A DNA stretch of 64,000 nt from an uncultured Chloroflexia bacterium (GTDB lineage: Bacteria > Chloroflexota > Limnocylindria > Limnocylindrales > CSP1-4), in the NCBI GenBank assembly GCA_963833285.1, contig CAWHXM010000005.1, positions 285,324 to 349,323 of the forward strand, written 5' to 3'. Below the pieces are notes generated by a model that was given only the letters and a program-made list of their open reading frames with translations, ran no database searches and was not told the DNA's origin. The number at the start of each line of letters is the position of its first letter. The stretch's first letter is position 1. Of this stretch, positions 9,617 through 64,000 are shown in pieces. Made by a program: the position numbers and the translations under genes.

Positions 9617-11753
9617 CCGATGGGTGCGCAGCGAGCGGCCGGAAACGCCGGCGTCGGCGCGCGAGCACGGTGTCGCCCAGGAGCGAGATGTTGGACGACG
9701 CCCGGATGCCGGCCTCCCGGCTCGACCAGGCCTCGGCGGTCCCGGTCGCGCCCAGCAGGTCGATCATCGCACCGGTCGCGCCGAGGAGGCGGACCGAGGC
9801 GTCGATGACCGCCTGGAGGATCTCGTCCTGGTCGTGCGTCGCGCTGACACGGCCGGCGATCTCGCGCAGCGTCCGCTCGGCGTCGGCGGTCCGGGTGAGC
9901 TCGCCGCGGGACCGCGCCAGCTCCTCGATCAGCCGGGCGTTGGTGATCGCGATCGCGGCCTGGCTGGCGAGGGCCCCGACGAGTGCGGCGTCCGTGTCGT
10001 TGAACGCGGCTCGCTGCGTCGAATAGACCTCGATGACCCCGAGCGGGCCGGATTCGCCGGTGATCGGCGCGGCGATCATCGAGTGGAACCCGGTCCGTTC
10101 GTAGAACTCGGTCGACTCCGCCGACGGCGGGAAGAGTGACGCGAGGTCGTCGTCGGCGACGACGACGCGATCCTCGGCGACAGCGGTCCCCGTGGCGCCG
10201 ACGCCCACCGAGATCCACAGGCTGGCGCGTTCCTCCGGCGTGAACTCCTCGGACAGGCCGTCGTCGAGCGCCCAGTTCAGGTTTCCCGTCGCGGGGTCGA
10301 GCAGGTCGAGGATGACGCCGTCGGCACGGACCAGCCGACCGGCCTGCTTCACGACGTCCTTGAGGATCTCGCCCGGCTCGCGCAGGACCGTGATCCTGGC
10401 GGCGATCTCGCGCAGGCCCTGTTCGGCCTCTGCCCGTCGCCTGAGCGCGTCGCGAGAGCGATCGAGCTCGGCGATCAGGCGGGTGGTCCGGATCGTGATC
10501 GAGGCCTGGTCGGCGATCGTGGTGAGCACTGCCGCGTCGGCCTCGCCCCAGGCATCGGGCCGGCCGCTGGACACCAGCAGGGCTCCGATCGAGCCGTCCT
10601 CGTCGGTCAACGGGACGGCCATCACGGAGCGGATCCCCGACGCCTCGATGAACCGGTCGATGTCGGGCAGATGGGTGAAGCGTGGGTCGCCCAGGTAATC
10701 GCCCGTCCAGAACGGCCGCCCACCCACGACGGCCTGCCCGGCCACGCCCTGGTCGAGCATCTCGTTGGGGTCTGCCGGCAGTGGCATCTGGGGCTCGAGC
10801 GCGCCCGACGCATAGGCCCCGCGCAGGAGCCCGACGGCGGGATCGATGAGGTCGATCCGTGCGCCGTCCGCGTCCATCAGCCGGGCGGCCTCGTCGACGC
10901 TCAGCTGGAGCACGGCTGGCAGATCGCTCGCCGCGCTGATGCGCGCCCCGATCTGGCGCAGCGTGCGCTCGATGTCGGCCAGCTTGGCCAGCTCGCCGCG
11001 CGAGCCGTCGAGCGCCTCGATGAGCCGGGCGTTGCTCATCGCCGCGGCCGCGTGGTCGGCGAGGGCTCGGACCAGACCGATCTGGGCCGGGCTGAACGCC
11101 TCGGGTCGCGAGGAGAACGTGCCGAGCGCGCCGTACACCTCGTCGCCGGCCACGAGCGGGGCGACGACCATCGAGCGGATCCCGATGTCGCGAACGACCC
11201 GGTCGGTGTCCTCGGCGTGGATGAACGCGGTGTCCGCGAGGTAGTCGTTGGTCAGGACGACTGCGCGCTCGGCGACGGCACGACCGAACATCCCGATCCC
11301 GACCGGCAGGTCGATCGAGCGGACCCACGCCCGGCTCCGCCGGCTGCGGATCCCGGCATCGTGCGCGAACCGCAGGTGGCCGGTCGCCGGATCGATCACG
11401 TAAACCATCGCGCCGTCGGCGTCGAGCAGCCGCGCGGCCTCGTCGACGGCCGCGGTCAGGAGCTCGTGGACGTCGCCGGCGCCGCCATCCGGATCGCGCC
11501 CGAGCCGGCGGCCGTCGCGGCTCCCCCGGCGGCGCGTCGCGGTAGCGGGGCTCGCGGCCTGGGCCGGGTCCGGGGTCGCGGATCCGTTCGAGGCGCCGTT
11601 GGCGTCGTCGGTCGCGGCGTGTGCGGCGGCCTCGAGCGGCTCCGTCGCCGGCGGGGCGGTCGGGGCTGTGGCGGTCGTCGGGCGGCGGGCGCGCGGCGCG
11701 CGCGTCGGGCTGGTCACCGCCCGAGGATACGACGCCACCGCCAGGACAGGCAT
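9588..11753 (-). CDS. N-terminal 721 aa of the same sensor kinase (GAF1 to start of GAF4), separated from 5516..9616 by a +1 frameshift near 9656-9662
   Basis: Three and a half GAF units with the same signature motifs. The GAF4 sequence continues seamlessly in the other frame (GVSGRSLRTHRMEWTGSYLDDDRF), so both ORFs belong to one ancestral reading frame. Confidence 0.8.
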   Translation of the reverse strand: MPVLAVASYPRAVTSPTRAPRARRPTTATAPTAPPATEPLEAAAHAATDDANGASNGSATPDPAQAASPATATRRRGSRDGRRLGRDPDGGAGDVHELLTAAVDEAARLLDADGAMVYVIDPATGHLRFAHDAGIRSRRSRAWVRSIDLPVGIGMFGRAVAERAVVLTNDYLADTAFIHAEDTDRVVRDIGIRSMVVAPLVAGDEVYGALGTFSSRPEAFSPAQIGLVRALADHAAAAMSNARLIEALDGSRGELAKLADIERTLRQIGARISAASDLPAVLQLSVDEAARLMDADGARIDLIDPAVGLLRGAYASGALEPQMPLPADPNEMLDQGVAGQAVVGGRPFWTGDYLGDPRFTHLPDIDRFIEASGIRSVMAVPLTDEDGSIGALLVSSGRPDAWGEADAAVLTTIADQASITIRTTRLIAELDRSRDALRRRAEAEQGLREIAARITVLREPGEILKDVVKQAGRLVRADGVILDLLDPATGNLNWALDDGLSEEFTPEERASLWISVGVGATGTAVAEDRVVVADDDLASLFPPSAESTEFYERTGFHSMIAAPITGESGPLGVIEVYSTQRAAFNDTDAALVGALASQAAIAITNARLIEELARSRGELTRTADAERTLREIAGRVSATHDQDEILQAVIDASVRLLGATGAMIDLLGATGTAEAWSSREAGIRASSNISLLGDTVLARRRRRFRPLAAHPSGGMDRLVPR

Positions 11754-49278: not shown

Positions 49279-51006
49279 TCAGACCGGGCTGGCCAGCCAG
49301 TTCGGGAGCTCGCGGCTGAGCGTCGCCAGCGGCAGCGAGCCATGGCCCAGGACCGCGTCATGGAAGGCCCGCAGGTCGAAGCGCGACCCGTCCCGCGCGG
49401 CGAGCTCGGCGCGCAGCCGCTCGATCTCCCGCTGGCCGATCTTGTAGGTCAGGGCCTGGCCCGGCCAGCAGATGTAGCGGTCGGTCTCGATGACGGCGTC
49501 GGTCTCCGACAGCCCGGCCTCCCTGAGGAAGTCGACCGATCGCTGGCGCGGCCAGCGGAGTGCGTGCAGCCCCGTGTCGACGACGAGCCGGGCGGCGCGC
49601 CAGGCCTGCGCATCGAGCATCCCGAAGCGCTCGGCCTCGGTCCGGAAGAGTCCCATCTCGTCGGCCAGGCGCTCGCTGTACAGTCCCCAGCCTTCCACGT
49701 AGGCCCCACCGACCATCCGCGCGCCGAGCCGCCGGAACGTGATGAGGTGCGGGTTCTCCATCTCGAGCGCGATCTGGAAATGGTGCCCGGGGGCGGCCTC
49801 GTGATAGGTCGTCGTGGCGAGCTTGGTGTACTTGCGACTGGGCAGGTCGTAGCCGTTCGCATAGTAGATGCCGGGCCGCGCTCCGTCCGGGGACGGCGGG
49901 TAGTAGTAGGCGAACGGTGCGTCCCGCTCCTTGTATTCCTCGACCGCGCGGACCTCGCAGGCGGCGCGCGGCAGGACGCCGAAGTAGCGTGGTGCGATCG
50001 ACATCGCTCGCTCGATGTCCTCGTGCGCGCGGACGACCAGCTCGTCCTTGGTGCCCGGGGTGTTCGCCGGATCGGCGTCGAGCGAGGCGCGATAGGCGGT
50101 CGTGTCGTCCTCGAAGCCGGCGCTGCGCGAGATCTCCCGTCGCTCGAGCTCGATCGCGTCGAGCTCGTCGAGCCCGACCCGGTGGACCTCCTCGGGGTCG
50201 AGATCGAGCGTCGTCCAGCTGCGGATCGCCGTCCGATAGAGCTCCTCGCCGTTCGGTGCCGACCACAGCCCGGGATCCTCGCGGGTCGCCGCGAGGTAGT
50301 CGCCCCGGAGCGCCTCGAGGAACGCCAGGTCGGCCGGATACACCTGGTCGCGCACGACGTCGCGCACCCGCTCGCGGTCGGCGTCCTTGGCGACCTTGAC
50401 CATCGAGGGGATGACCGCCGCCTCGATCGGGACCTCGAGCAACCGCCCGATCTGGGCGATGGTCCGCTCCGCAACTATCCGCGGCGCGGTCAGCCCGGAC
50501 GCCAGGGCGTCGCGCAGGATCTCGATGTTGGCCTCCATGAACGCCGGATAGGCATGGAGCCGGGTCAGGAACGCGTCGAGTCGGTCGGGGGTGTCGGCCG
50601 GCTGGAACTGGGTCAGCTGCGGCAGGAGCTGCTGCGGGCCGGCCATCTGGTCGACGACCCGGAGCTGGTACAGGTGCTGGTCGTCCTCCTCGATCTGGAG
50701 ATCGGCGATGACCTTGAGCATGTCCCGCGTGATCCGGTCCTCGGTCGGGAGCCCGTCGGTATCGATGGCGGCGGCCTCCGCGCCCGTCCGCTCCATGAGG
50801 GCTCGGGCGCGTGCCCGACCGGTGGCCGAGGGATCCTCGAGTCGGTCGGCATAACGCTCGTCGCCGTACAGCGTCGCGGTCGTCGGGTTGAGCTCCAGGA
50901 CGGCCTCCCAGAAGCGCTCGGCGAGGTCGTTGACTGGCGTCAGGGCGGGGTCGGGCAGGGTCACGCTTGGCTCCTGTTCGCGACGCGCGATCGGCATCGT
51001 GGTCGA
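49279..51006 (-). CDS. DUF885-family putative metallopeptidase
   Basis: HEAAPGHHFQ zinc-site-like motif in a 575-aa protein with the typical DUF885 length. Confidence 0.55.
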   Translation of the reverse strand, partial: STTMPIARREQEPSVTLPDPALTPVNDLAERFWEAVLELNPTTATLYGDERYADRLEDPSATGRARARALMERTGAEAAAIDTDGLPTEDRITRDMLKVIADLQIEEDDQHLYQLRVVDQMAGPQQLLPQLTQFQPADTPDRLDAFLTRLHAYPAFMEANIEILRDALASGLTAPRIVAERTIAQIGRLLEVPIEAAVIPSMVKVAKDADRERVRDVVRDQVYPADLAFLEALRGDYLAATREDPGLWSAPNGEELYRTAIRSWTTLDLDPEEVHRVGLDELDAIELERREISRSAGFEDDTTAYRASLDADPANTPGTKDELVVRAHEDIERAMSIAPRYFGVLPRAACEVRAVEEYKERDAPFAYYYPPSPDGARPGIYYANGYDLPSRKYTKLATTTYHEAAPGHHFQIALEMENPHLITFRRLGARMVGGAYVEGWGLYSERLADEMGLFRTEAERFGMLDAQAWRAARLVVDTGLHALRWPRQRSVDFLREAGLSETDAVIETDRYICWPGQALTYKIGQREIERLRAELAARDGSRFDLRAFHDAVLGHGSLPLATLSRELPNWLASPV

Positions 51007-51062: not shown

Positions 51063-53906
51063 TCAGCCGCCGAACAGTGGCATCTGCTCGCCGCTCCGCT
51101 CGATCGGCGGGTCGAGCCCGAGGTACGGCTCCAGATCGGCCAGATCGAGCGGGTCGCGCCCGAGGAACGTCCGCAGGTGGACCGACTTGATGATGTGCCA
51201 GTTCGCGGCCTCGAGGGCCTCGCGCAGCAGCGGCGAGCGGGCGAGCTTGTAGCGCACGAGCTCGGTCCGCTCGGGGGCGATCACGAGGAACCTGATGTGC
51301 GACTCGTCGGCGGGGATGCGCGTGTGGCGGCGCAGCACGGGCTCGTTGAGCATCGCCGTCCACTCGACCTCGAACAGGAATGCGACCTTGCCCCGGACGT
51401 ACCAGATCGCGTCGACCTCCGCGAGCTCGTCGGCCGCATGGCTGATCCCGCCGAGGTAGGCCCGCTGCTCGCCCGGACCGAGCAGGTCGCCGAGCAGGCC
51501 ATCGCCGAGCCGACGCGTCTGCTCGCGGCGACCGATCCAGACGCGCATGCCAAGCCGGTGGCCGCCCCCGGCGATGGTCGCCAGGAGGTCCGTGTGTTCC
51601 TGGCTGCGGCGCAGCAGGTCGTCGGCCGTGATCACGCGTTCCGGCGTGCTGGCGAGGCTTCGGTAGCTGTCGAGGCACGCCCGGACGAGGCCCTCGTCGG
51701 GCAGGTCGTGGCCGCCGAACATCGTCGCGATCCGCTCGAAGAACGCGGTCTCGGCGATGGGGCCGGCGGTCGAGAGGAGGCTGAAGACGGCCCATTCGAC
51801 GCGGTCGGCGAGGGGCACGGCCGCACTCTCGAGGTCCTCCGGATCGGCCAGCCACCAGCGGCCGGGCTCGATCTCGGTCAGGCGATGCTGCGTCGCGCGA
51901 CCGAGCTCGTTGCGGATGAGGCCGAGCAGGCGCTCGACCGGATCCGCATCGGCCTCCCGGTCCGACGTCGCCCGGCGGGACCGCGTCGTGATCCCCGGTG
52001 GCGGCGAGGACGGCGTCGCGCCGCCAGCGGCCGAGGTCGCGCCGGTCGGCTCGCCGGTCGGCTCGCCGCTCGCGCGCCCACCCTCCGCGGGCTCCTCGGT
52101 GGCCGGGTCGCCGGCGCGATCGTCGTCCGGAGGCCCGTCGTCGAGGCCCGGATCGTCGGGCGATCCGGTCGCACCGGCCGGCGACAGCGTCGCAGTCGCC
52201 AACCGACGGAGCTGGCCCGCCCGATCCAGCCCGACCAGGATCTCGCCGAGCAGCCGCTCGAAGCGCGCGGGCTCACCCCTCGCGCGCAGCGTCTCGACCG
52301 CGGTCTCCGTCACGGTCCGCGCCGCGTCGGCCGTCGAGAACGGACGCTGGTCGAATTGCTCCGGCGCTGCGAACAGGCCCTTCGCCGGGACGAGGTCGGG
52401 ATCGCCCGCCCCGCCCGGGACCGGCTCGAGCCCGACGTTCGCGCGCGTCCGGGGTCCGGGTGGCAGGAGCCCGCCCGGTGGCAGCGACTCGACGATGGCT
52501 GCGGCATCCTCGTCCGGGTCGGACATCCTCGCGCCGAGGAGCCGGTAGCCGGCCGTCGCGCCGCCCATGACCGCCGCAACGATCGCCTCCGGGCCGCCGT
52601 CGACGAGCTGGATCACCCGGCCGTCACGGGCCATCGAGGGCTCGATCGCCTCGAGCGCATGCCCGATCGCGGCAGCCTGCCAGCTCCACGGCGGCCGGAG
52701 CGACGGACCCGTCAGCGCGTCGACCGGCAGCAGGCTCGCCGCCTCGCGCCCGAGGACCCAGGATGTGGCGTGGTACGCACCGGCGAGCCGATCCAGGTTC
52801 GGGCGCATCGGCGGCTGGCCGAGGACGAGGCGGACCCTTGGCGTTGGAGCGGTCCGCCCATAGGCGGTCGGGTCGTCGCGGAGGAGCAGCAGCCCGCTCG
52901 CGCTGGCGAGCCCGAGCACGGCGGTCGCGGTCCCTTCCCCGAGGCTTCGCAGGTCCTCGCCGAGCCGGGCCTGGATCGGGCCTGCCGTGCCAGTCTCGAG
53001 GCGCTGGATGAAGCCGCGGACGCCGCGGAACGCGTCCTCGAACGCCAGCCACGGGTTGCGCTCTCGGAACTGGATCCCGCTCTGCGGCCGGACATGCCCC
53101 GCCGACACGCGCAGGGCGGCGGCACGACCGGGCCCGGTCGCGAGCCGGCTGGCGGGCAGGATCGAGTGGAGCAGGGCGAGGCGGAGTGCCGCGAGCACGG
53201 GGGCGGCGCGCAGGTCGGCCTCGATCCGCTCGAGGATCGCGCCGAGCCCCACCAGCTGGCGCGGCGTATGGAGGTCGAGCAGCTCGTCGGTGAGGGTCTC
53301 CGCGCCGTCGATAGCGGGGAAGCGGGATCGCAACGAAACGCGCATCGCCTCGGCGCCGACGTCGCTCGTCGCGCGGCGCAGGTCGTCGGGATCGAGCGGT
53401 GCCTGGCGCTGCTCGGAGCCGCCTTGCTGGTCGCGACAGACCGTGCATCGGTAATGCCGGGCGACCGGCCGTGCCCGACCTGCCACGCCGGCCTCGTCGT
53501 CCACCGACCAGACGACCTCGTCGATCACCAGCGTCCGGCCGCACGTCGCGCAGCGCGTGGCGAACAGGTCGCCGATCGACACCTTCAGGCTCGACTCGCG
53601 ACGCGGCGAGGCAGCCAGTCCCTGGAACGCGGCGTCGAGATGGCGGACGTCGGGCGGCCGGAGGACGACCTCGGCGAGCATCCTCGTCAGCGGGCTCGAT
53701 TCGAGCGAGACCGCGCGGCGCTGGCGATCCACCGCCGCCCGGGCGACCCATGCCCCACGGCCGAACAGGTCGACCACGACGTCGCCCGGTCCGGTGTGAA
53801 GCTCGATCCGCGCCGCCACGACCGACGGCGGCGGCGCGGGCGCGAGCCGGTCGAAGACGGGAAGCGAGTAACCCGGTTGGGCGTTGGCAGGTCCGCGTCC
53901 GGTCAC
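51063..53906 (-). CDS. 947-aa multidomain hypothetical protein: degenerate MTase motif I, Cys4 zinc ribbon, acidic/Pro linker, C-terminal PD-(D/E)xK-like domain
   Basis: GDVVVDLFGRGAWVARAAV resembles the SAM-MTase motif PGDxVLDPFxGSGTT, with no NPPY/DPPY motif found. A CxxC...CxxC pair follows (CATCGR...CTVCRD), then a linker (PDDDRAGDPATEEPAEGGRASGEPTGEPTG), and a C-terminus with VDAIWYVRGKVAFLFEVEW ... IRFLVIAPER. Confidence 0.7.
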   Translation of the reverse strand: MTGRGPANAQPGYSLPVFDRLAPAPPPSVVAARIELHTGPGDVVVDLFGRGAWVARAAVDRQRRAVSLESSPLTRMLAEVVLRPPDVRHLDAAFQGLAASPRRESSLKVSIGDLFATRCATCGRTLVIDEVVWSVDDEAGVAGRARPVARHYRCTVCRDQQGGSEQRQAPLDPDDLRRATSDVGAEAMRVSLRSRFPAIDGAETLTDELLDLHTPRQLVGLGAILERIEADLRAAPVLAALRLALLHSILPASRLATGPGRAAALRVSAGHVRPQSGIQFRERNPWLAFEDAFRGVRGFIQRLETGTAGPIQARLGEDLRSLGEGTATAVLGLASASGLLLLRDDPTAYGRTAPTPRVRLVLGQPPMRPNLDRLAGAYHATSWVLGREAASLLPVDALTGPSLRPPWSWQAAAIGHALEAIEPSMARDGRVIQLVDGGPEAIVAAVMGGATAGYRLLGARMSDPDEDAAAIVESLPPGGLLPPGPRTRANVGLEPVPGGAGDPDLVPAKGLFAAPEQFDQRPFSTADAARTVTETAVETLRARGEPARFERLLGEILVGLDRAGQLRRLATATLSPAGATGSPDDPGLDDGPPDDDRAGDPATEEPAEGGRASGEPTGEPTGATSAAGGATPSSPPPGITTRSRRATSDREADADPVERLLGLIRNELGRATQHRLTEIEPGRWWLADPEDLESAAVPLADRVEWAVFSLLSTAGPIAETAFFERIATMFGGHDLPDEGLVRACLDSYRSLASTPERVITADDLLRRSQEHTDLLATIAGGGHRLGMRVWIGRREQTRRLGDGLLGDLLGPGEQRAYLGGISHAADELAEVDAIWYVRGKVAFLFEVEWTAMLNEPVLRRHTRIPADESHIRFLVIAPERTELVRYKLARSPLLREALEAANWHIIKSVHLRTFLGRDPLDLADLEPYLGLDPPIERSGEQMPLFGG

Positions 53907-53943
53907 GCGGCAGATGCTAGCCGACCCGCGCTACGCTTGGCCG

Positions 53944-54888
53944 ATGGATGACCCGTTGATCGCGTTCGCCACGATCCCACCCATCCCGGTGCACCCGGCG
54001 GTCATCGCCGCTCGGCAACCCATCGGGCGTGTCGTGTCCGACCTGTTGGCCGTCCCGGACGAGGCTCTCGAGGATGCGTGGCGATGGCGACCGTCCGACG
54101 TGGACGACGTCGAGCTGCGCTATGGCGTGTATCGGATCCACGAGCGACTCGAGGCCGCGATCGGGGCGATCGAGGTCGGCCGGGTGGCGACCGGCCGGGG
54201 CGAGCCGATCGGACCTGCCGTTCCGCCTCTGGCCGCGATGGCCGCGGCGCGGTGGGAGCTCCGTGGGGCGCTATCGCCGCTCGACCCCGAGGCCTGGGAC
54301 GCCGAGCCGGGTGGCGGTGAGTGGACGGTCCGCCGGACCGTCGGGCACATCGTCGGGAGCCAGCGGTCGTACGGCTGGTACAACGCCTGGTACCTCAAGG
54401 AGGGAGTCGTCGGCGCTGAGGTCGTCCGACCATCCGATGACGTCATGCCGCCCGAGCCGACCGAGGAGGAAGAGGCGCTCGGCACGCCGGCGACCGTCCT
54501 GGCACGGTTCGACGACGTGGTCGACGCGAATCTCGCGGCGACCGCCGGCCTCGACGCGGGGGCGATGCGCGTCAGCGCCAGGTGGTCTGGCCTGCCGGTG
54601 ACCATCGACTTCCGGCTCGGGCGGTACGGCTCGCATATCCGCGAGCACACGGTCCAGGTCGAAAAGACCCTGGCGATGCTCGGGCATCGGCCGTCCGAGG
54701 TCGAGCGGCTCGTGCGGCTCATCCTCGCGACGTATGGGCGGCTCGAGGCAGTGCTCGTCGGGCGGTCGCACGACGAGCTGGGGCGGCCGCTGTCTGACGG
54801 AACGAGCGCGGTCGGGATCCTTGGCGCGGCCCTGACCGATGCCGCGGCGACCGCGGCCAGGGTGCGGGCGGCAGCTGACGGCGGCTGA
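53944..54888 (+). CDS. DinB/YfiT-like (DinB_2) metal-dependent protein
   Basis: TVGHIVGSQRSYGWYNAW and GSHIREHTVQ histidine pattern of the DinB_2 four-helix-bundle family. Confidence 0.6.
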   Translation: MDDPLIAFATIPPIPVHPAVIAARQPIGRVVSDLLAVPDEALEDAWRWRPSDVDDVELRYGVYRIHERLEAAIGAIEVGRVATGRGEPIGPAVPPLAAMAAARWELRGALSPLDPEAWDAEPGGGEWTVRRTVGHIVGSQRSYGWYNAWYLKEGVVGAEVVRPSDDVMPPEPTEEEEALGTPATVLARFDDVVDANLAATAGLDAGAMRVSARWSGLPVTIDFRLGRYGSHIREHTVQVEKTLAMLGHRPSEVERLVRLILATYGRLEAVLVGRSHDELGRPLSDGTSAVGILGAALTDAAATAARVRAAADGG

Positions 54889-55100: not shown

Positions 55101-55958
55101 CTACGGCTCGTCGAGCTCGTCCGGCTCGTCCTCGAAGGCCTCGTCCGTCGTCGACTCCGGCGGCAGGACGCGATCGAGGTCCTCGATCTCGTCGTCCTCC
55201 TCGTCGTCCTCGAGGTCCTCCTCGAGATCCATCTCCTCGCGGACGAGCGTGCCCTTGGTGTACGGCCTGAGGTCGGTCGACTTGGCCGCCGTCGGGAAGC
55301 TGACCTTGCCGTAGTTGGCCGGGTCCTGGAAGATCTCGCGAAGGATGATCCGGACGTCCTTGTCGCCGAGCGAGGTGACACCGGCGGCGTACTTGTTGCC
55401 GTCGGCCATGAGCTTGAGCAGGCGGGCGGCCACGCGCGGCTCGACGACGCCGATCCGGACGCCGTTGCTGTGCGCGATCAGCCGGTTGCCCTCGGGCGTC
55501 AGCTCGACCGCGTCGCCCGGGTTGACCTGCGCGAGCTGGCGCGGATCGGCGAGATCGGTGAGGAACGCGAAGCCGGTCTTGCCGGTCTCCTCGACGAAGA
55601 TGCTGACCGGGGCCTTGCTGCCCTCCTGCGCCGGGACGGTCTTCTCGCCGGCCGCGACGAGGAGCATCTTGAGCCGGTCGATATTGCGCTCGGCGATGCG
55701 GTTGGTCGGGTCGAGCGCCAGTGCGGTCTGGTAGTGCTCGCGAGCGGAGCCGAGCTCGCCCATCTCCCACAGCGCCTTGGCCAGCCGGTTCTCCGACTCC
55801 GCGTCGGGGCCGAGCTCGAGGAGGCGACGGTTCGTCGTGGCGGCTTCGGCCCACTGGGCGGCGGTCGCCTGGGCGATCGCCTGGTCGGCCAGCTGCCGCT
55901 TCTGACGGGTCAGATTGACAGGGCTGGGCGCGGTGGTCTCGACATCGGGGAAGGTCAC
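55101..55958 (-). CDS. TPR-repeat protein with a strongly acidic C-terminal tail
   Basis: TPR-like helices (WAEAATTNRRLLELGPDAESENRLAKALWEMGELGSAREHYQTALALDP) and a DLEEDLEDDEEDDEIEDLD tail. GTG start with AAGGACG Shine-Dalgarno; a TTGACG-17-TAGAAA promoter lies at 56046-56081. Confidence 0.6.
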   Translation of the reverse strand: MTFPDVETTAPSPVNLTRQKRQLADQAIAQATAAQWAEAATTNRRLLELGPDAESENRLAKALWEMGELGSAREHYQTALALDPTNRIAERNIDRLKMLLVAAGEKTVPAQEGSKAPVSIFVEETGKTGFAFLTDLADPRQLAQVNPGDAVELTPEGNRLIAHSNGVRIGVVEPRVAARLLKLMADGNKYAAGVTSLGDKDVRIILREIFQDPANYGKVSFPTAAKSTDLRPYTKGTLVREEMDLEEDLEDDEEDDEIEDLDRVLPPESTTDEAFEDEPDELDEP

Positions 55959-56114
55959 GAGGCGGTCGTCCTTTCGGGGCGCGGCTGGTAGCGGGTGCAC
56001 GGGCGGGGTGCCGGGCGCGCGGGCACACGGTGCGCATGGCGGACATGCTTTCTAGCACCGTCCGGGCGGCACGTCAAACGGGGGTGCGTCGCGCCGCGCC
56101 CGAGCCCGAAGGCA

Positions 56115-56941: not shown

Positions 56942-58765
56942 TCACATTCGCCCCGCCTTGCCGGCCGACCAGGCCAGCAGATCGGCCCGCGATCGGGTGT
57001 TGACCACGTCGTCCGCCGTGACCCACGCGCGGCGCGCCTGGCTGATCCCCCAGCGGACGAAGTCGAGCTCGTCGAGGTCGTGGGCATCGGAATCGATGGC
57101 GAGCAGGCAGCCGAGGCCGACGGCGCGCCGGGCCCGTTCGACGGCGAGGTCGAGGCGGGGTGGCGAGCCGTTCATCTCGAGCGCGGTCCCGGTCCGCGCC
57201 GCCTCGCTGTAGATCGCGTCCCAGTCGAGATCGAGGTCGTCACGCTGACCGATCTTCCGCCCCGACGGGTGGGCGATGACATCGACATGCGGGTTGCGGA
57301 TGGCGTTGAGCGTGCGCTGGGTCAGCTCGGCCCGCGTCTGGCGGCGCGACACGTGCACCGACGCGACGACGAGGTCGAAGCGAACCAGCAGGTCGTCATC
57401 GAAGTCGAGCCGGCCATCGGCGCGGACCTCGAGCTCACAGCCGTGCAGCAGGCGGAACCCCTCGGCAGGGGTCCCGGGCGGCGCCGTCCCGGCGGCCTCC
57501 TCCGCGGCGAACCGGGCATTGAGCGCGGCGATGATCTCGACCTGTTCGGCAACGCGATCCGGGGTCAGGCCGCGGGCGATCGAGAGCGACTGTGTGTGAT
57601 CGGTCAGCACCTGGTAGGCGTACCCGCGCCGGCGGACGGCCTGCGCCATGACCTCGATCGACTGGTGCCCGTCGGACCAGTCAGAATGGCTGTGGAGATC
57701 GCCGCGCAGATCGCTCTGCTCGACGAGCGCCGGGAGCCGGCCGGCGAGCGCTGCCTCGATCTCGCCCGCGTCCTCGCGCAGCTCGGGCTCGATGAACGGG
57801 AGGCCCAGGAAGGCATACGCCTCGGCCTCCGTCGGGAAGGTCCGCAGCTCGGCGGCATCGCCGGTCAGCGGCTCGCCATCGTCGCCGATGCGCAGGAAGC
57901 CCTTCTCCGACAGGCTCCAGCCGCGATCGCGGGCCATCGCCCGAAGCCGGACGTTGTGCTCCTTGGAGCCGGTGAAATGGATGCGATACGTGCCCGCCTC
58001 CCCTGGCGGCACCACCATCAGGTCCACTTGTGGTCCGCGCATGAGCCGGACCGCCGCCTTGTGGCCGCCCCGGTTGATGACCGAATCGACGAGCCCGAAC
58101 GACGTGAACGCGTCGATCAGCGCCGCCGGCCGGTCGGTCTCGGCCAGCAGGTCGAGGTCGCCGATCGACTCCCGACGGCGACGCAACGAGCCGGCCGGCT
58201 CGATCGAACGGACCCCCTCCGTCGGCGACAGGAGGCCGATGAGGGCCCCGGTCAGCTCCTCGGCGCGGCCGAGGAGCATCCGGTCGAATTGATCGTCGAG
58301 CTTGGCGATGCCCTCGAGGACCAGGGTCTCGGTCCTCGCCGACATTCCGCGGACGCCCCGCAGCTGACCGGATTCCGCAGCCTGCCGGAGGTCGTCCACG
58401 GTCTCGATGCCGAGCTCCGCGTTGAGCTGGCGGACGGTCTTCGGTCCGAGACCGGGGATCCGCAGGAGCTCGACCAGCGAGGGCGGCACCTCCGCCCGGA
58501 GCCGCTCGTAGAACGCGAGGTGGCCGGTCGCGGCGAGCTCGGCAAGCTTGTCGCTGATGGCCTTGCCGACGCCCGGGATCTGCGGTGGCGTCCCCGCCCG
58601 GTACGCCGACACGATATCGACCGGGCTGCGCCCGATCGCCTCGGCGGCGCGGTGGTAGGCGACGGTCTTGAACACGAGCTCGCCCTTGAGCTCGAGCATG
58701 TCCCCGATCTCGTGGAAGATCCGGGCGAGGTCGCCGTTGGTGAGGTCGGCCGGGTCGTTGGTCAC
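56942..58765 (-). CDS. polX: DNA polymerase X family protein with C-terminal PHP phosphoesterase domain
   Basis: Pol beta-like N-terminus (HhH GLGPKTV, nucleotidyltransferase GS/DLDLL) and PHP motif DLHSHSDWSDG. Confidence 0.85.
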   Translation of the reverse strand: MTNDPADLTNGDLARIFHEIGDMLELKGELVFKTVAYHRAAEAIGRSPVDIVSAYRAGTPPQIPGVGKAISDKLAELAATGHLAFYERLRAEVPPSLVELLRIPGLGPKTVRQLNAELGIETVDDLRQAAESGQLRGVRGMSARTETLVLEGIAKLDDQFDRMLLGRAEELTGALIGLLSPTEGVRSIEPAGSLRRRRESIGDLDLLAETDRPAALIDAFTSFGLVDSVINRGGHKAAVRLMRGPQVDLMVVPPGEAGTYRIHFTGSKEHNVRLRAMARDRGWSLSEKGFLRIGDDGEPLTGDAAELRTFPTEAEAYAFLGLPFIEPELREDAGEIEAALAGRLPALVEQSDLRGDLHSHSDWSDGHQSIEVMAQAVRRRGYAYQVLTDHTQSLSIARGLTPDRVAEQVEIIAALNARFAAEEAAGTAPPGTPAEGFRLLHGCELEVRADGRLDFDDDLLVRFDLVVASVHVSRRQTRAELTQRTLNAIRNPHVDVIAHPSGRKIGQRDDLDLDWDAIYSEAARTGTALEMNGSPPRLDLAVERARRAVGLGCLLAIDSDAHDLDELDFVRWGISQARRAWVTADDVVNTRSRADLLAWSAGKAGRM

Positions 58766-58812: not shown

Positions 58813-60171
58813 TCAGGCGGCGACGACCCGGTCGCGGCCACCACGCTTGGCCCGGTAGAGCGCCCGGTCCGCGTTGGCGATCAGGTCGTCGATCGGCTGG
58901 TCGGCGTAGTCCGCGACGGCCACCCCAACGGACGCGCTGACGGCGTCGACGCCGAGCCGACGGAGGTCTAGCCCACCGACCGACGCGCGGACGCGCTCGC
59001 CGACCTCGAGGGCGATCTCCAGGCTCGGGTTTCGCAGCAGGACGACGAACTCCTCGCCCCCGTAGCGGGCCGGGACGTCGTCCTCGCGGACGGCCGCGAC
59101 GATCGCTCCGCCGACCGCCCGCAGGACCTCGTCGCCGGTCGCGTGCCCATGGGTGTCGTTGAGGACCTTGAACCGGTCGATGTCGATCATCAGCACGCCC
59201 ACCGCGTCGTCCGCTCGACGGCGACGCGCGAGCAGGCCGCAGAACTCGTCGAAGTAGCGACGGTTCGGCAGGCCGGTCAGGGCGTCGGTCGAGGCCTGCG
59301 CCTCGGCCGCGCGCAACGAGTACGCCCGCGACAGGGCGGACGACGCCTCCAGCGCGGCGCCGTTCAGGATCCGTCGCGTCGTCGCCGACCAGGCGCCCGC
59401 CGTTCGTTGCGACAGGACGATCGCCCCGATCACGCCACCCTGCGAGGTCAGCGGCGCGGCGAGCGTGTCGCTCAGCCCGTACGCCTGCCGAGCCCGTCGC
59501 GCGATGCGGTCGGCGACGGCCTGATGGCTGACGGTGGCGGTGTCCACGGACGCCACGATGCCCGGCGTCGGGCCGGCCGACGCGATCCTCGCGGTCAAGC
59601 CGTCGATCCGCGTCCGCAGGGCGACGGCGGCCACCGCCTGCGGCGCGTCCGCGCCGACCGGGATCGCCACCGGCTCGCGGTCGGCGAGCTCGGCGTCACC
59701 GGCGACGGGGTCCTCGAGATCGCCGATCGGCAGGAGTGTCGTGGAGTCGGACACGCCGGGCCGAGCGCTGACCAGGGTCGCCTCGAGGACGCGGGCGTCC
59801 GGTCGCCGGCGCGCGATGACGATGTGGTCGGCGCCGGTCGCCTCGGCCAGCTCGTCGACGATGGCCCCCAGGATCGCGTCAGGCGACACGGAGCGCGACA
59901 GACTCGACAGGATCCTGGCGAACGACTCGGCCTCCTCGCGACGGCCGACCTCGAGCGCGGCGACGGCCTGACGATGGCGGATCGCCGCGTAGCCGACAAG
60001 GACGATGAGGCCGACCAGGACCACGTCGATCGGCCGCGTGTCCAGCGCGAGCCGAAGGACGGCGATCAGGCACAAGCTGAAGAACGAGACGACGAAGATC
60101 CACCAGGCTCGTCGGATCCGACGATCCGTGGGCTCCTCGGGTCGAGCCGGCGGGTGGGTGGGTTCGCTCAC
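58813..60171 (-). CDS. membrane-anchored GAF-GGDEF diguanylate cyclase (GGEEF variant)
   Basis: Two TM helices, a GAF-like region, then RYGGEEFVVLL and the inhibitory-site-like RxxD context. GTG start at 60171 avoids overlap with the next gene. Confidence 0.8.
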   Translation of the reverse strand: MSEPTHPPARPEEPTDRRIRRAWWIFVVSFFSLCLIAVLRLALDTRPIDVVLVGLIVLVGYAAIRHRQAVAALEVGRREEAESFARILSSLSRSVSPDAILGAIVDELAEATGADHIVIARRRPDARVLEATLVSARPGVSDSTTLLPIGDLEDPVAGDAELADREPVAIPVGADAPQAVAAVALRTRIDGLTARIASAGPTPGIVASVDTATVSHQAVADRIARRARQAYGLSDTLAAPLTSQGGVIGAIVLSQRTAGAWSATTRRILNGAALEASSALSRAYSLRAAEAQASTDALTGLPNRRYFDEFCGLLARRRRADDAVGVLMIDIDRFKVLNDTHGHATGDEVLRAVGGAIVAAVREDDVPARYGGEEFVVLLRNPSLEIALEVGERVRASVGGLDLRRLGVDAVSASVGVAVADYADQPIDDLIANADRALYRAKRGGRDRVVAA

Positions 60172-60259
60172 GTCAGGGATAGAGGATGGCGGTCCGGGAC
60201 CGTCGCGTCCATCCCCTTCGGTGGTACTCCGTGGGCTCCCGGCGGGCGGTACTTTCGTA

Positions 60260-62326
60260 CTAGGAGACGCGCTCGACCGGATCCGCGGCGCCGGTGGCCC
60301 GCGCGCCCGCGAAGTCGTTCCCACCGTCGCGCTTTACCCGATACAGCGCAAGATCGGCGGCGACGATGAGCTCGGTGGCGGTCCGGCCGTCGGTCGGGAA
60401 CGTGGCGGCGCCGATCGACGCGCCGATCGGGACCGGACCGCGCTGCTCCCCGACGAAGGCCTTGTCCCGGAAGGCCGCGACGATCCGTTCGGCGGCCGAG
60501 CGCGCTTCGTCCGCGTCCGTCTCGGGCAGGATGATCGCGAATTCGTCGCCGCCATAGCGGGCCGGGACATCCGACGCGCGCAGCGTCGAGCGGATCAGCT
60601 CCGCGGTCCAGGTCAGGACGCGGTCGCCGAACAGATGCCCGAACGTGTCGTTGACGAGCTTGAAGTCGTCGAGGTCGAGCATCAGCACGCTCATCGGCCG
60701 GCGCGCCCGTTGCGAGCGGACGACCTCCTCGCCGAGCCGCTCGTGGAGGAACCGGTGGCTGTAGAACCCGGTCAGCGGGTCGCGGTCGGCGAGGTTCCGG
60801 GCATCCTCGTAGAGGCGCGCGTTCTCCAGCGCCATGGCCGCCTCGTTGGCCATCGTCCTGGCGAGCCCGAGGCGTTCGTCGTTCCAGGTCATCGGGCCTT
60901 TGGAGATCAGCTCGACCAGGCCGATCGATTGTCCCTTGGCGACCAGCGGCAGCATGGCCAGGAGGCGACTGCCGTCCTGGGCCATCAGCGCGACTTCGGC
61001 GCGGTCGGCGGCCGGATCCTCGGCGTCGACGATGACCGTCTCCTGTCGTTCGAGCACGCGCAGCGTCTCCGGATAGCCGGCGACCAGGAAGAACGGCTCG
61101 AGCTCGCCACGCCGCTCGCTCGGGAAGTACCCGAGCGACTCGACGCGGCCGGCGGCCCGGTCCCAGTAGCTGATGAGGCACTCGTCGACACCGGTGGCGC
61201 GGACCAGGTGGCGGGCCATGAGGTCCGCGACCTGGCGCGGATCGAGGCTGCCCGACAGTTCGGCGCTCATGTCGAGCAGGCGCCGCAGCTCGCCGGCGAG
61301 ATCCTGGGTCCTCGTCAGCAGGCGCGCCGATCCGACCGCGGTCGCCGCCCGGTCGGCGAGGATCGTCAGCAGGCGAAGGTCGTCCGAGCCGAAGCCGTCG
61401 AGTCCCAGCTTGGAGAGCGTGATGACCCCGATCGTGACGTCGTCGTAGCGCATCGGGACGACCAGCATGGATTCGTCGATGTCGTCGGTCCCGGCGATGG
61501 TGACGCCGCGCGGGTCACGGTTCGCGTCGTTGACGAGGATCGGCTCCCCGTGCTCGGCGACCCAGCCGGTGAAGCCTTCGCCGAGCTTGCAGGTGAGGAG
61601 CGCCATGTCGACGATGTCGTAGGCGCCCACGCGTCCCTCGAACGCGATCGGGACCACGTCCGACCCCTCGATGAGGTAGACCCGGGCGTTGTGGTAGTCG
61701 ATGATCCCGCCCGTCTCCTCGACGATGGTCCGGCCGATCTCGTCGATGGACACCGCGCGGCTCAACCGCGCCGACGCATTCTGCAGGACCTCGAGCTGTG
61801 CGGCCCGCGCCACGGTCTGCTCGAACAGATCGGCATTCGCGAGGGCGATCGCGGCATGCGTCGCGAGTGTCGAGATGAACGCGACGTCGCCGCTCGTCCA
61901 CGATCGCGGCTCGCGTGTCACGGCAGACAGCGCCCCGATGACCCCGTCGTGGTACATCAGCGGCGCGCTGAGGTGGCCGGCGACCTCGAAGATCCCGTCG
62001 TAGCGCTCGATGCCGTTGTCGCCATCCTCGCGGACGTCCGGAAGGGCAAGGACCTGGCCGGTCCGCAGGGCCTCACCGACCCAGCCCTCGTCGCGCCCGA
62101 GATCCGGCAGGTGCCTCGCCATGTCGTCCGGGATCCCGGCCCACGCCGTGAGTTCGAGCCGATCGTCGCGGACGGTCCGGATCGTCGTGGCGTCCGCTCG
62201 CAGGACCCGCTTCGTCTCGTCGACGATCATCCGCAGCAGCTCCCGCCGGTCGTGCGAGGCCGCCAGCCGTCCGGCGATCCCGAGGACGGTGTCCAGCCGT
62301 TCGGCGAGCTCCGCCTCGAGACCCAT
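60260..62326 (-). CDS. cytoplasmic triple-GAF GGDEF diguanylate cyclase
   Basis: Three GAF domains and a C-terminal RYGGDEFAIIL GGDEF domain. The upstream 170 codons of the listed ORF are RP-rich and not called. Confidence 0.8.
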   Translation of the reverse strand: MGLEAELAERLDTVLGIAGRLAASHDRRELLRMIVDETKRVLRADATTIRTVRDDRLELTAWAGIPDDMARHLPDLGRDEGWVGEALRTGQVLALPDVREDGDNGIERYDGIFEVAGHLSAPLMYHDGVIGALSAVTREPRSWTSGDVAFISTLATHAAIALANADLFEQTVARAAQLEVLQNASARLSRAVSIDEIGRTIVEETGGIIDYHNARVYLIEGSDVVPIAFEGRVGAYDIVDMALLTCKLGEGFTGWVAEHGEPILVNDANRDPRGVTIAGTDDIDESMLVVPMRYDDVTIGVITLSKLGLDGFGSDDLRLLTILADRAATAVGSARLLTRTQDLAGELRRLLDMSAELSGSLDPRQVADLMARHLVRATGVDECLISYWDRAAGRVESLGYFPSERRGELEPFFLVAGYPETLRVLERQETVIVDAEDPAADRAEVALMAQDGSRLLAMLPLVAKGQSIGLVELISKGPMTWNDERLGLARTMANEAAMALENARLYEDARNLADRDPLTGFYSHRFLHERLGEEVVRSQRARRPMSVLMLDLDDFKLVNDTFGHLFGDRVLTWTAELIRSTLRASDVPARYGGDEFAIILPETDADEARSAAERIVAAFRDKAFVGEQRGPVPIGASIGAATFPTDGRTATELIVAADLALYRVKRDGGNDFAGARATGAADPVERVS

Positions 62327-62564
62327 GCCGAACGTCTCGGGTCGCGCGAGGTAGGTCTCCGGGATCGCGGCACGATCCGTCCCGACGATGCGCCGGAAGA
62401 TGGATCCCGACGCCGTGGCACCCGGGCCGTGGGTAGTCGGCGCGGACGTCGGCGATCCCGCCGGAGCCGGCGGGTAGTCCCCGAGACCAGGTCGAACGCG
62501 CACGGTCCGATGGTCCCACCGCGGGACCTCGCCAAGGAGCCGCCATGAGTCCTGGGCACGGGGC

Positions 62565-62602
62565 TGACCTTTGGCTGTCGTGACCTTTGGCTGTCGTTGA
62601 CC
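62565..62602. repeat. tandem direct repeat TGACCTTTGGCTGTCG x2.3 overlapping the -35 of the mgtE promoter
   Basis: tgacctttggctgtcg tgacctttggctgtcg ttgacc. Confidence 0.8.
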
Positions 62603-62626
62603 GCGTCGCAAGCCCGGGACTAGACT
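62597..62626 (+). promoter_or_regulatory. candidate mgtE promoter: TTGACC-18-TAGACT, giving a leader of about 200 nt
   Basis: -35 TTGACC at 62597-62602, -10 TAGACT at 62621-62626; ATG at 62836. Confidence 0.5.
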
Positions 62627-62835
62627 CCAAGACGCGCCGCGGGCCTCGCGCCCGGGCGGTTCCATGTCGCACTCGAGGTCAGCACACAACCCGTGGACGA
62701 CGGTCCCAGTCCCGCCGGCGCCGAGCGCGCCGGCATCACCGAGGAAACGGTTCGTCCCGCCTCCTGACGGCTGACCGCGACCACGTGGTCGCGCCACCGG
62801 AGCGGCGGGACGTCCCGCCCGTGAGGTGGCAACCA

Positions 62836-64000
62836 TGCTCTATCTGAGCCAGGCCATCGGCCGCCCCGTGCTCGATGCCAACGGCGAGCCGCTCGGCAAG
62901 GTCGACGATCTCATCGTCGCCGTCGGCGATCGCTACCCGCCGGTCACCGGCCTCGTCGTGGCGACCGACAAGCGACGCATCTTCATCCCGTGGACGCAGG
63001 TCGCGCGCTTCGATTCGTCGGGTGCCCGGCTGTCGACCGACAGGATCGACATCACCAGGTTCCAGGGTCGCGAGAACGAGATCCAGCTCCGCGCCGATCT
63101 CCTCGACAAGCAGATCGTGGACATCGACGGCCGCAAGGTCGTGCGCGTCAACGACCTGCGCCTCGACGACGTCGACGGCCGGCTGCACCTGGTCGCGGTC
63201 GACGTCGGCGCGGCCGGGCTGCTCCGCAGGCTCGGGATCGAGGGCGCCTACCGGATCCTGGCCCGCAACCTGCACCTGCCGACCCCCGAGCGGTACATCG
63301 ACTGGGAGGACGTCGACCCGGTCGAGACGAGCATCGCCTCGATCAAGCTGCGGATCCCGCATGCCGGGCTGACCGAGCTCCACCCCGCCGACCTGGCCAC
63401 GATCATCGACCAGCTCTCACCGCGCGATCGGGCCGGCGTGCTCGCCGCGCTCGACGATGAGGCGGCCGCGGACGCGATCGAGGAGATGGAGCCCGACACG
63501 CAGGTCGAGGTCCTCGAAGGCCTGGCGCCCGAACGCGCCGCGGACATCCTCGAGGAAATGTCGCCCGACGACGCCGCGGACCTGGTGGCCGATCTGTCGG
63601 ACGAGACGCGCACGGAGCTCCTCGCCCTGATGGAACGCGACGAGGCGGAGGAGCTCGGCGGCCTGCTCGCGTACCCGGAGGACACCGCCGGCGGGATGAT
63701 GACGACCGAGTTCGTGGCCGTCCCGGCCGAGCTCACCGCAAGTCAGACGATCGACCGGTTGCGTGAGCTCGAGCCCGATGCCGAGACCATCTACTACGTC
63801 TACGTCGTCGACGCCGACAGGCGGCTCGTCGGCGTTCTCTCGCTGCGGGACCTCATCGTCGCGCGGCCGGATACGCCGATCGGGGAGGTGATGATCGACG
63901 AGCCCGTCGCGGTCGAGGTCAGCGCCGATCGCGACGACGTCGCGAGCGTGGTCGCGCGCTACAACCTCCTCGCCGTCCCGGTCGTCGACGGCGATGGCGG
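62836..64000 (+). CDS. mgtE: magnesium transporter MgtE (N-terminal PRC-barrel-like, MgtE_N and CBS domains; runs off the window end)
   Basis: MgtE_N acidic helical domain (DDEAAADAIEEMEPDTQVEVLEGL ... EEMSPDDAADLVADL) followed by a CBS pair (IYYVYVVDADRRLVGVLSLRDL). It has no stop in the window, so it is not in the ORF track. Confidence 0.85.

Follow-up and report, generated by a model that had tools for sequence, protein, structure and literature searches.

The window, the whole 64,000-nucleotide stretch of contig CAWHXM010000005.1 analysed here, contains a large reverse-strand gene whose product combines a methyltransferase-like fold with a restriction-endonuclease-like fold (Table 1). The ORF is real: its base composition is coding-like (GC3 0.90, GC2 0.55), its start position is the same in orthologues, and the 994-aa ORF on the opposite strand is Arg-rich junk. 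The protein has more than 1500 homologues, which, together with the high-confidence structure models and the strong conservation of key residues, indicates that the architecture is more than a product of chance. In the databases, members of the family are named "hypothetical protein" or, now and then, "site-specific DNA-methyltransferase", and the statement of the first-pass annotation that the architecture belongs to no characterised family stands. Pfam and NCBIfam scans with the query itself returned no match (Pfam to an E-value of 1), and neither did phmmer when the single query sequence was compared with PDB sequences. Literature searches for PF27126/NmeDI_C, or for an inactive methylase occurring together with both a restriction nuclease and the sliding clamp, yielded nothing relevant. 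The promoter region of the gene contains no LexA-type box (GAACN4GTTC), and across the window this pattern is matched about as often as expected by chance (20 observed vs. 16.8 expected).

Table 1. Location of the gene and of the features of its product; coordinates are those of the window.
Feature	Residues	Coordinates	Strand	Basis
Whole gene, 947 aa and stop codon, GTG start		51063..53906	(-)	ORF list, translation
N-terminal half of methyltransferase fold (motif X/I/II region, β1-αA-β2-αB)	1-83	53658..53906	(-)	profile match, model
Motif-I-like DLFGRGAW; motif-II acidic residue	46-53; E69	within 53658..53906	(-)	
Module inserted into methyltransferase fold	84-325	52932..53657	(-)	model secondary structure, conservation
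Cys4 zinc ribbon, CxxC-x31-CxxC (C119, C122, C154, C157)	119-157	53436..53552	(-)	translation
C-terminal half of methyltransferase fold (β3-β7)	326-476	52479..52931	(-)	
Degenerate motif IV, VRLVLGQPPMR	357-367	52803..52835	(-)	translation, alignment to 2zie and M.RsrI
Loop modelled as disordered, sequence conserved within Limnocylindria	477-523	52338..52478	(-)	
Three helices with family-wide R543-G-E-P546 motif	524-572	52191..52337	(-)	model
Pro/Asp/Glu/Gly/Ala low-complexity linker	573-650 (approx.)	51957..52190	(-)	
Winged-helix region	651-760	51627..51956	(-)	
PD-(D/E)xK restriction-endonuclease-like domain	761-910	51177..51626	(-)	
QMPLF, β-sliding-clamp-binding-type motif in flexible C-terminal tail	941-945	51072..51086	(-)	translation

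The N-terminal part has the seven-stranded Rossmann-like fold of class I SAM-dependent methyltransferases, an assignment at the superfamily level. The family profile matches the motif X/I/II region of the β-class N6-adenine/N4-cytosine methyltransferases (PF01555) TTHA0409 (2zie), M.RsrI (1nw8), and M.MboIIA (1g60) with E-values from 4.7e-8 to 2e-5, and this segment is homologous; in the model, the strands of the N-terminal domain comprise residues 43-49 and 64-69. The motif IV strand VRLVLGQPPMR aligns with SvhLVvTSPPY of the solved methylases 2zie and M.RsrI, the aligned pattern being SVdLvLtxPP. The closest structural neighbours include the tRNA, rRNA, and protein amino-methyltransferases Trm11, TrmN, PrmA, and HemK, and a Foldseek comparison of the N-terminal model with the PDB gave only weak matches (best E-value 6.6e-3). 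The order of motifs differs from that of the β-class: motif I (profile positions 25-76) precedes motif IV (332-355) by about 310 residues, as in the α-class or linear order, whereas the order is reversed in 2zie and 1nw8. Also unlike in the β-class, the fold is split by an insert of about 240 residues, (D/N/S)PP(Y/F/W) is reduced to xPPx, and Arg takes the place of the first Gly of FxGxG.

This degeneration extends over most of the family, as assessed on 106 representatives (50% clustering, identity down to 27%), the set from which all conservation percentages given here are derived. The glycine loop of the query reads D-L-F-G-R-G-A-W in place of the SAM-binding motif I D-P-F-x-G-S-G-T-T, and distant members have DPFCRxxxx; position 50, the first Gly of FxGxG in methylases, carries Arg in 80% of representatives and Gln or His in others. 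The query motif IV, G-Q-P-P-M, departs from (D/N/S)-P-P-(Y/F/W), and within it only P366 is conserved (94%): position 364 is occupied by Q, E, A, S, R, or D (63, 14, 10, 6, 3, and 1%, respectively) and position 367 by V, Q, A, P, R, L, S, or M, with no aromatic residue among those listed. The residues for amino-methyl transfer thus appear to have been lost, which would imply the loss of methylation, and those for SAM binding were probably lost too. Since D46 and the motif-II acidic residue (E69 or Asp) stay conserved, some ligand might still be bound in the former SAM pocket. The first-pass annotation had located motif I at about residues 38-55 and reported no (D/N)PP(Y/F) motif after it; the motif-I-like segment GDVVVDLFGRGAWVARAAV is indeed present, but at residues 41-59, and while no canonical catalytic motif follows, the degenerate motif IV does.

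The database name "site-specific DNA-methyltransferase" should therefore be treated with caution by annotators, as it is based on about 50 residues around motif I, namely a partial Pfam match to the last 50 profile positions, and the catalytic motif is absent. In distant homologues, the match to Pfam N6_N4_Mtase is confined to profile positions ~160-215 of 221, the score exceeds 26.7 bits in just two of ten of them, and the query falls below every Pfam threshold.

The module inserted into the methyltransferase fold consists of the zinc ribbon, a helical bundle, a β-meander, and a near-invariant motif E282-x-N284-x-W286..F289. The four Cys residues of the ribbon are invariant in alignment A2 and conserved in about 95% of the representatives, and the ribbon has weak matches to zinc-ribbon proteins; the Cys4 ribbon proposed in the first pass is genuine, but with a spacing of x31 rather than x17. 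Alignments A2 and A4 show no variation at E282 and W286; in A4, N284 is invariant too and F289 nearly so, and all four residues are conserved in 87-92% of the representatives. Downstream of the fold, the loop has pLDDT below 50 at residues 484-518, yet alignment A1 is without variation at nine of its positions (P482, P483, R486, R488, N490, G498, G499, G501, and D502); in distant members the loop is missing or unalignable. R543 and P546 of the following helices are invariant in alignment A2. Among orthologues, the length of the low-complexity linker, already recognised in the first pass, ranges from 0 to about 100 residues, with P0030, P0106, and P0113 having no linker; "fast-evolving", a term used in the first pass, applies to this linker and to nothing else.

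The C-terminal domain contains the α-β-β-β-α-β core of restriction endonucleases. Its residues 770-895 match positions 177-308 of the 351-position REase_II profile of PADLOC (PDLC03534; E-value 1.8e-5), which also matches 9 of 17 members, and NmeDI_C (PF27126) has been annotated in many orthologues, such as P0002 (86% identity), though not in the query entry P0001. The earlier suggestion of a PD-(D/E)xK core at the C-terminus is thereby upheld, the strings quoted in its favour being located on strands of the modelled fold. Candidate active-site residues are E770/H771 on a helix, D832, E846-x-E848 on a strand, and E879/R880/K887. D832, preceding strand 2, is conserved in 94% of representatives; E846 and E848, at the end of strand 3 (E846-V-E848), in 89 and 93%; and R880 in 98%. 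Taken with H771, these residues are 89-98% conserved, above the methylase motifs. A few members have a non-acidic residue at position 846 (Q, V, and T in P0208, P0238, and P0252, respectively). The second Glu occupies the place where the catalytic (D/E)-x-K motif usually has Lys, and, judging from the sequence, the positive charge could come from R880 or K887.

The pentapeptide QMPLF fits the pattern Q-L-x-L-F in a C-terminal segment predicted to be exposed (pLDDT of the tail about 50), which suggests a client of the β sliding clamp, whose binding consensus is QLxLF (PMC4549789). Of 233 full-length members, with identities down to 25%, 208 carry a motif of this type, compared with 3 of 487 background ORFs and an expected frequency of about 0.2%; Q941 and F945 are conserved in 89 and 84% of representatives. 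Because the motif is short and is also found in IS transposases (PMC4549789), it is no proof of a housekeeping role. It had been missed in the first pass.

The first 600 pattern matches listed for the gene cover at least 547 species genomes. The arrangement PolX-TPR-target-DUF885 was found in 72-73 of 80 loci (neighbour by neighbour, DUF885 in 73, TPR in 72, and PolX in 62 of the 80), and the divergence of the protein tracks that of its neighbours (rho 0.57-0.68); this synteny in Limnocylindria may stem from recent common ancestry alone. The neighbours in the window are metabolic, signalling, or repair genes, and those in five distinct lineage contexts are housekeeping genes. Several candidate partners were considered and rejected. 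DUF885 lies downstream on the same strand (49279..51006), at a gap of 56 nt rather than the 57 initially given, but its co-occurrence with the target, proposed as a check in the first pass, holds in the close Limnocylindria clade only, as other genes are found downstream in distant lineages. TPR and PolX, which lie upstream, are likewise not neighbours in distant lineages, and TPR and the target are kept apart in the window by a divergent DinB_2 gene; this arrangement does not point to an operon. Genes of HIT and of HD hydrolases each occur immediately upstream in two distant lineages, with no consistent pattern across the family.

We propose, with a probability of about 0.5, that the product of the gene is a stand-alone endonuclease for genome maintenance, which is inherited vertically in Chloroflexota and derives from a fusion of the restriction-modification type. 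Genome maintenance is preferred over phage defence because the fusion of an apparently dead methylase with a nuclease ends in a motif of the clamp-docking type and because the gene is a conserved chromosomal one. The N-terminal 476 residues, which keep the methyltransferase fold and its insert, would now serve as a DNA-binding or base-inspecting module, joined through the flexible acidic linker to the winged helix and the NmeDI-type nuclease. The latter, with its largely intact acidic site (D832, E846, E848), would cut DNA with a metal cofactor. Docking of the QMPLF tail on the β clamp would bring the protein to replication forks or repair intermediates, and not to incoming foreign DNA.

The strongest alternative is a restriction or defence enzyme, either similar to types IIG/IIC with an unusual but working methylase, or a type IV-like nuclease that reads modifications of foreign DNA through the dead methylase. 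Features of this kind had led the first pass to a DNA-targeting or defence protein, and both halves are homologous to components of restriction-modification systems, the C-terminal domain belonging to a family named after the restriction enzyme R.NmeDI; the gene has no partner, as is the case for type IIG and type IV enzymes, and toxin-antitoxin genes are located within a few kb of it in two distant loci. We nevertheless regard this alternative as unlikely. Nearly all members are without the D/N/S-PP-aromatic motif IV, and such an active nuclease would be toxic without self-methylation. Defence genes are typically patchy, whereas this gene has the distribution of a core gene, stable housekeeping synteny over 80 genomes, and co-divergence with its neighbours. 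No cognate methylase or defence genes were found near it in the five lineage contexts, and PADLOC-DB 2.0 yielded only weak domain-level matches (generic REase_II, MTase_II). No relatives were found in IMG/VR (alignment A1 was used for viral contigs), PLSDB, or INPHARED, although the silence of the plasmid and phage collections is weak evidence, as mobile elements of Chloroflexota are poorly represented there. Finally, to our knowledge, a conserved tail of the clamp-binding type has not been described for restriction enzymes.

Single-chain restriction-modification fusions of type IIG/IIC/IIB (e.g., MmeI, BpuSI, BcgI) also combine a methylase fold and a PD-(D/E)xK nuclease in one polypeptide encoded by one gene. 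In these enzymes, the nuclease is N-terminal, the methylase is of the γ-class with an intact NPPY/F motif, a target-recognition domain is C-terminal, and the distribution is sporadic. In the Chloroflexota protein, the domain order is reversed, and degenerate methylase motifs are found with core-gene synteny and vertical inheritance in place of an active host-protecting methylase with sporadic distribution. The nuclease core resembles that of R.NmeDI-type type II endonucleases in its PD-(D/E)xK fold, its match to the REase_II profile, and the presence of NmeDI_C in many orthologues. R.NmeDI, however, is a small stand-alone enzyme of 351 aa that cuts on both sides of RCCGGY and has its cognate C5 methylase as a separate protein, along with a Vsr gene (PMC2095814), whereas the nuclease considered here makes up the C-terminal third of a chain of 947 aa that also contains a pseudo-methylase, and has no cognate methylase, a core-gene distribution, and a clamp-motif-like tail.

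A second alternative is a clamp-associated protein without enzymatic activity, both domains being dead, that would bind DNA or serve as a scaffold, e.g., in chromosome organisation or as a regulator of replication. The degenerate methylase motifs, the nuclease motif D...ExE in place of D...ExK, the absence of E846 from a few members, and the many putative DNA-binding modules (zinc ribbon, winged helix) are consistent with it. We consider it improbable, since conservation of D832, E848, R880, and H771 in 93-98% of the representatives at identities down to 27% suggests catalysis, and the ExE and ExQ variants of BamHI and BglII are functional. Least probable is an active non-canonical methyltransferase of DNA, RNA, or protein with a nuclease-like domain that only binds nucleic acids: it would agree with the complete Rossmann fold, the conserved D46 and motif-II acidic residue, the structural neighbours, and the name given to some relatives in NCBI records, but not with Arg, Gln, or His at position 50 of the glycine loop, the free variation of positions 364 and 367, unexpected for a catalytic site, the stronger conservation of the nuclease acidic residues than of any methylase motif, or the origin of that name in a partial match.

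Within the genome-maintenance reading, a more specific but doubtful scenario is a hitherto unrecognised, replication-coupled DNA repair or surveillance pathway of Chloroflexota. The dead methyltransferase would act behind the fork as a base-flipping sensor of a mismatch, a lesion, or a modified or unmodified base, and the clamp-held NmeDI-type nuclease would incise, making the protein a functional analogue of MutH or NucS that arose from a domesticated restriction-modification enzyme. MutH and Vsr are precedents for the recruitment of a restriction-type nuclease to chromosomal repair. They are small single-domain proteins with neither a methylase-like domain nor a clamp motif, and neither was detected in any search with the target. 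The resemblance to NucS/EndoMS (2vld) is an analogy only, as there is no sequence homology; NucS has about 225-250 aa and an N-terminal dimerisation and DNA-binding domain, and is devoid of a methylase fold, a zinc ribbon, and a winged helix.

Each kind of domain in the protein, i.e., the methylase fold, the zinc ribbon, the winged helix, the restriction-type nuclease, and the clamp motif, is known. In the literature, we found no description of their combination, a methylase fold devoid of catalytic motifs with a nuclease and a clamp-type tail, as a core gene throughout a phylum. In Limnocylindraceae, a family of the same class, loss of DNA repair genes has been linked to genome evolution (PMC13212565). 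If the proposed role is true, the protein would clearly exemplify the domestication of an entire restriction-modification-type enzyme for chromosome maintenance, and it would be one more client of the bacterial sliding clamp.

The gene described in the first-pass annotation was confirmed by the ORF listing and by translation as a reading frame of 947 residues with a GTG start. At the window's G+C content of 72%, long ORFs are often spurious; the values for the three codon positions (GC1 0.77, GC2 0.55, GC3 0.90) are the signature of a real gene. An overlapping plus-strand ORF of 994 codons was rejected as a gene, its translation being Arg-rich nonsense. All sequence features reported from the first reading were found in the protein, with corrections to the zinc-ribbon spacing, the position of motif I, and motif IV, and the structural observations were largely right.

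Comparison of the single sequence with Pfam, NCBIfam, and PDB sequences gave no match. More than 1500 homologues are present in large protein collections, and the family amounts to 1174 clusters at 50% identity. The closest 120 homologues are full-length, 70–86% identical, and derive from Limnocylindria/Chloroflexota metagenome-assembled genomes; remoter full-length members (25–37% identity, about 830–890 aa) occur in other Chloroflexota, e.g., Dehalococcoidales. In a one-genome-per-species collection, relatives are encoded in at least 547 species genomes (547/600 among the pattern matches listed). Database names are "hypothetical protein" and, rarely, "site-specific DNA-methyltransferase"; the literature searched contains no description of the family as a whole, which agrees with the earlier remark that the architecture resembles no characterised family. 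No relatives were found among IMG/VR viral contigs, PLSDB plasmids, and INPHARED phages, where Chloroflexota elements are so sparse that this counts as weak evidence.

The gene is surrounded by genes for MscS, a class III aminotransferase, a DAO oxidoreductase, DUF885, DinB_2, a TPR protein, PolX-PHP, and GAF-GGDEF proteins, with sensor kinases and metabolic genes farther away; within the window, these surroundings lack methylases, mobile elements, and defence genes. Most of 80 related genomes share the order PolX-TPR-target-DUF885-aminotransferase-MscS. The divergence of the protein follows that of its neighbours (Spearman rho 0.57–0.68), at a somewhat faster rate (69% vs. 76–88% identity). 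Distant lineages have different neighbours, namely, a HIT hydrolase, an HD hydrolase with histidine ammonia-lyase, or a phosphoribosyltransferase, and again no methylase or defence partner adjoins the family members in these loci. The defence role suggested in the first-pass annotation is not supported, and a genuine restriction enzyme or type IV defence enzyme is an unlikely reading: this genomic context, the core-gene behaviour, and the degeneracy of the methylase all argue against it.

Several neighbours deserve separate mention. The 299-aa TPR protein (a single TPR hit, an acidic tail, no NCBIfam match) is the most conserved gene product of the neighbourhood, with 81–97% identity across 72/80 loci, and in most relatives its gene lies immediately upstream of the target. 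The divergent DinB_2/mycothiol-maleylpyruvate-isomerase-like gene between them occupies that place in only 15/80 loci and is thus a variable insertion in an otherwise fixed synteny; the listed ORF start overlaps the start codon of the target, so the gene probably begins farther downstream. PolX, a DNA-repair polymerase of the bacterial type with a PHP domain (NCBIfam PRK08609 equivalog, 460 bits), is encoded on the same strand as the putative repair nuclease, two to three genes upstream of it; the two are syntenic in 62/80 loci, but the linkage does not extend to distant lineages. Of the distant upstream hydrolase genes, one HIT gene abuts the family member; these hydrolases may be lineage-specific operon partners. 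The locus L080 (DASRJS010000032.1), labelled Candidatus Polarisedimenticolia, has the Limnocylindria order GGDEF-PolX-TPR-DinB2-target-DUF885-aminotransferase-MscS-ACS at 58–79% identity, probably owing to mistaken binning or labelling and not to transfer. The large signalling genes abundant in the window are ordinary chromosomal content, without mobile elements.

Coordinates of the target gene, its protein features, and associated genes (L0xx, loci of related genomes)
Feature	Nucleotide position (strand)	Residues	Details
Target gene	window 51063..53906 (-)	1-947	
Motif-I-like string		41-59	
Insert		about 84-325	zinc ribbon, helical bundle, beta-meander
Zinc ribbon		C119, C122, C154, C157	CxxC-x31-CxxC
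Conserved insert motif	window 53037..53066 (-)	281-290	F-R-E-R-N-P-W-L-A-F-E
Degenerate motif IV		357-367	VRLVLGQPPMR
Limnocylindria loop	window 52338..52478 (-)	477-523	
Clamp-binding-type motif		941-945	QMPLF
DinB_2-like gene	window 53884..54888 (+)		
TPR gene	window 55101..56000 (-)		
PolX-PHP gene	window 56942..58765 (-)		
Large signalling genes	window 5516..9616 (-), 9588..11753 (-), 58813..60324 (-), 60260..62839 (-), 31484..34258 (+)		1366-aa GAFx4-PASx4 histidine kinase, triple-GAF protein, two GAF-GGDEF cyclases, adenylate-cyclase-AAA-TPR (STAND-like) protein
Genes directly upstream of distant family members	L081 7014..7502; L084 5511..5978; L083 7208..7828; L085 4792..5448		HIT-family hydrolases (two loci), HD-domain hydrolases (two loci)

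With the PADLOC model REase_II PDLC03534 (351 positions), the target gives a hit over residues 770–895 (E 1.8e-5), as do 9/17 divergent family members, and many orthologues carry a precomputed Pfam hit to PF27126 (NmeDI_C). R.NmeDI itself, a type II enzyme of 351 aa, cleaves on both sides of RCCGGY (PMC2095814). In the structure model, D832 immediately precedes strand 2, and E846-V-E848 stands at the close of strand 3. BamHI is known for the same ExE arrangement. Among 106 cluster representatives, D832 (94%), E846 (89%), E848 (93%), H771 (93%), and R880 (98%) are clearly better conserved than the methylase motifs, and for this reason the C-terminal domain is likely, as judged from sequence, to be an active nuclease. 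The conserved acidic triad makes it distinctly improbable that the protein is a fully non-catalytic, clamp-associated DNA-binding protein.

A profile built on 17 divergent members matched, chiefly through the motif X/I/II segment, the solved beta-class N6/N4 DNA methyltransferases TTHA0409 (2zie, E 4.7e-8), M.RsrI (2.6e-7), and M.MboIIA (2e-5), followed by N4C methylases, PvuII, and CcrM. A second match, weak but consistent, aligns the family string SVdLvLtePP with the motif IV strand SVhLVvTSPPY, and with the Pfam N6_N4_Mtase model two distant members score above threshold, though only along the final ~50 profile positions. It follows that the methyltransferase fold is complete; an insert splits it. 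Motif IV follows motif I at a distance of about 310 residues, an alpha-like order, whereas beta-class methylases are permuted. The motif-I-like string noticed in the first pass is real and was slightly misplaced, the motif IV said to be absent exists in degenerate form, and the Cys4 ribbon has a spacer of 31 rather than 17 residues.

The motif IV D/N/S position is occupied by Q/E/A/S/R in the 106 representatives and the aromatic position by V/Q/A/P/R/L/S/M, while in 80% of them Arg replaces the first glycine of the FxGxG loop. We infer that the N-terminal half is a pseudo-methyltransferase which has lost its chemistry-defining residues; some ligand binding is possible, because D46 and the motif-II acidic residue are conserved. 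An unorthodox active methyltransferase is very improbable, given that the would-be catalytic positions vary freely.

Within the insert, E282-x-N284-x-W286 is near-invariant; E282 and W286 are invariant across divergent alignments, and E282, N284, W286, and F289 (all 87–92% conserved in the representatives) mark one of the best-conserved motifs of the N-terminal half. The loop at 477–523 is modelled as disordered (pLDDT <50), nearly invariant across Limnocylindria (LPPGPRTRANVGLEPxPGGAGDPDxVP...GLFAxPE.FD.RPFS), and missing from distant members; it could represent a short linear interaction motif peculiar to that lineage.

The C-terminus, EQMPLFGG, was overlooked in the first pass. It matches the beta-clamp-binding consensus Q-L-x-L-F, which is typically C-terminal in clamp clients (PMC4549789). 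The pattern Q[LMIV]x[LMIF][FLW] falls within the last 14 residues of 208/233 full-length members, the most divergent of which terminate exactly at QLSLF, QLTLF, or QLQLF; among the remaining coding-like ORFs, taken from the window and 80 related loci, 3/487 have it (chance expectation about 0.2%). The tail is flexible in the structure model and is predicted from its sequence to bind the clamp. The three ORFs outside the family that alone share such a clamp-motif-like end (L015, L016, and L072; about 620–630 aa and 233 aa), all ending in REGGQL(L/V)LLRIPGA, are orthologues of one protein.

In the reading best supported by these data, to which we give about an even chance (0.5), the protein is a domesticated restriction-modification-type fusion that inspects and cuts DNA and is recruited by the clamp. 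DNA binding or inspection would fall to the dead methylase fold, the zinc ribbon, and the winged helix, and cleavage to the NmeDI-type domain; the QLxLF tail would bring the protein to the sliding clamp, i.e., to replication or repair sites. Such functional logic parallels, by analogy, that of NucS/EndoMS and of the restriction-derived repair nucleases MutH and Vsr, although the protein is homologous to none of them. Every domain is of a known kind, the C-terminal one already having a Pfam entry; what is unusual is that a core gene found throughout the phylum combines a pseudo-methylase, a conserved nuclease, and a clamp motif.
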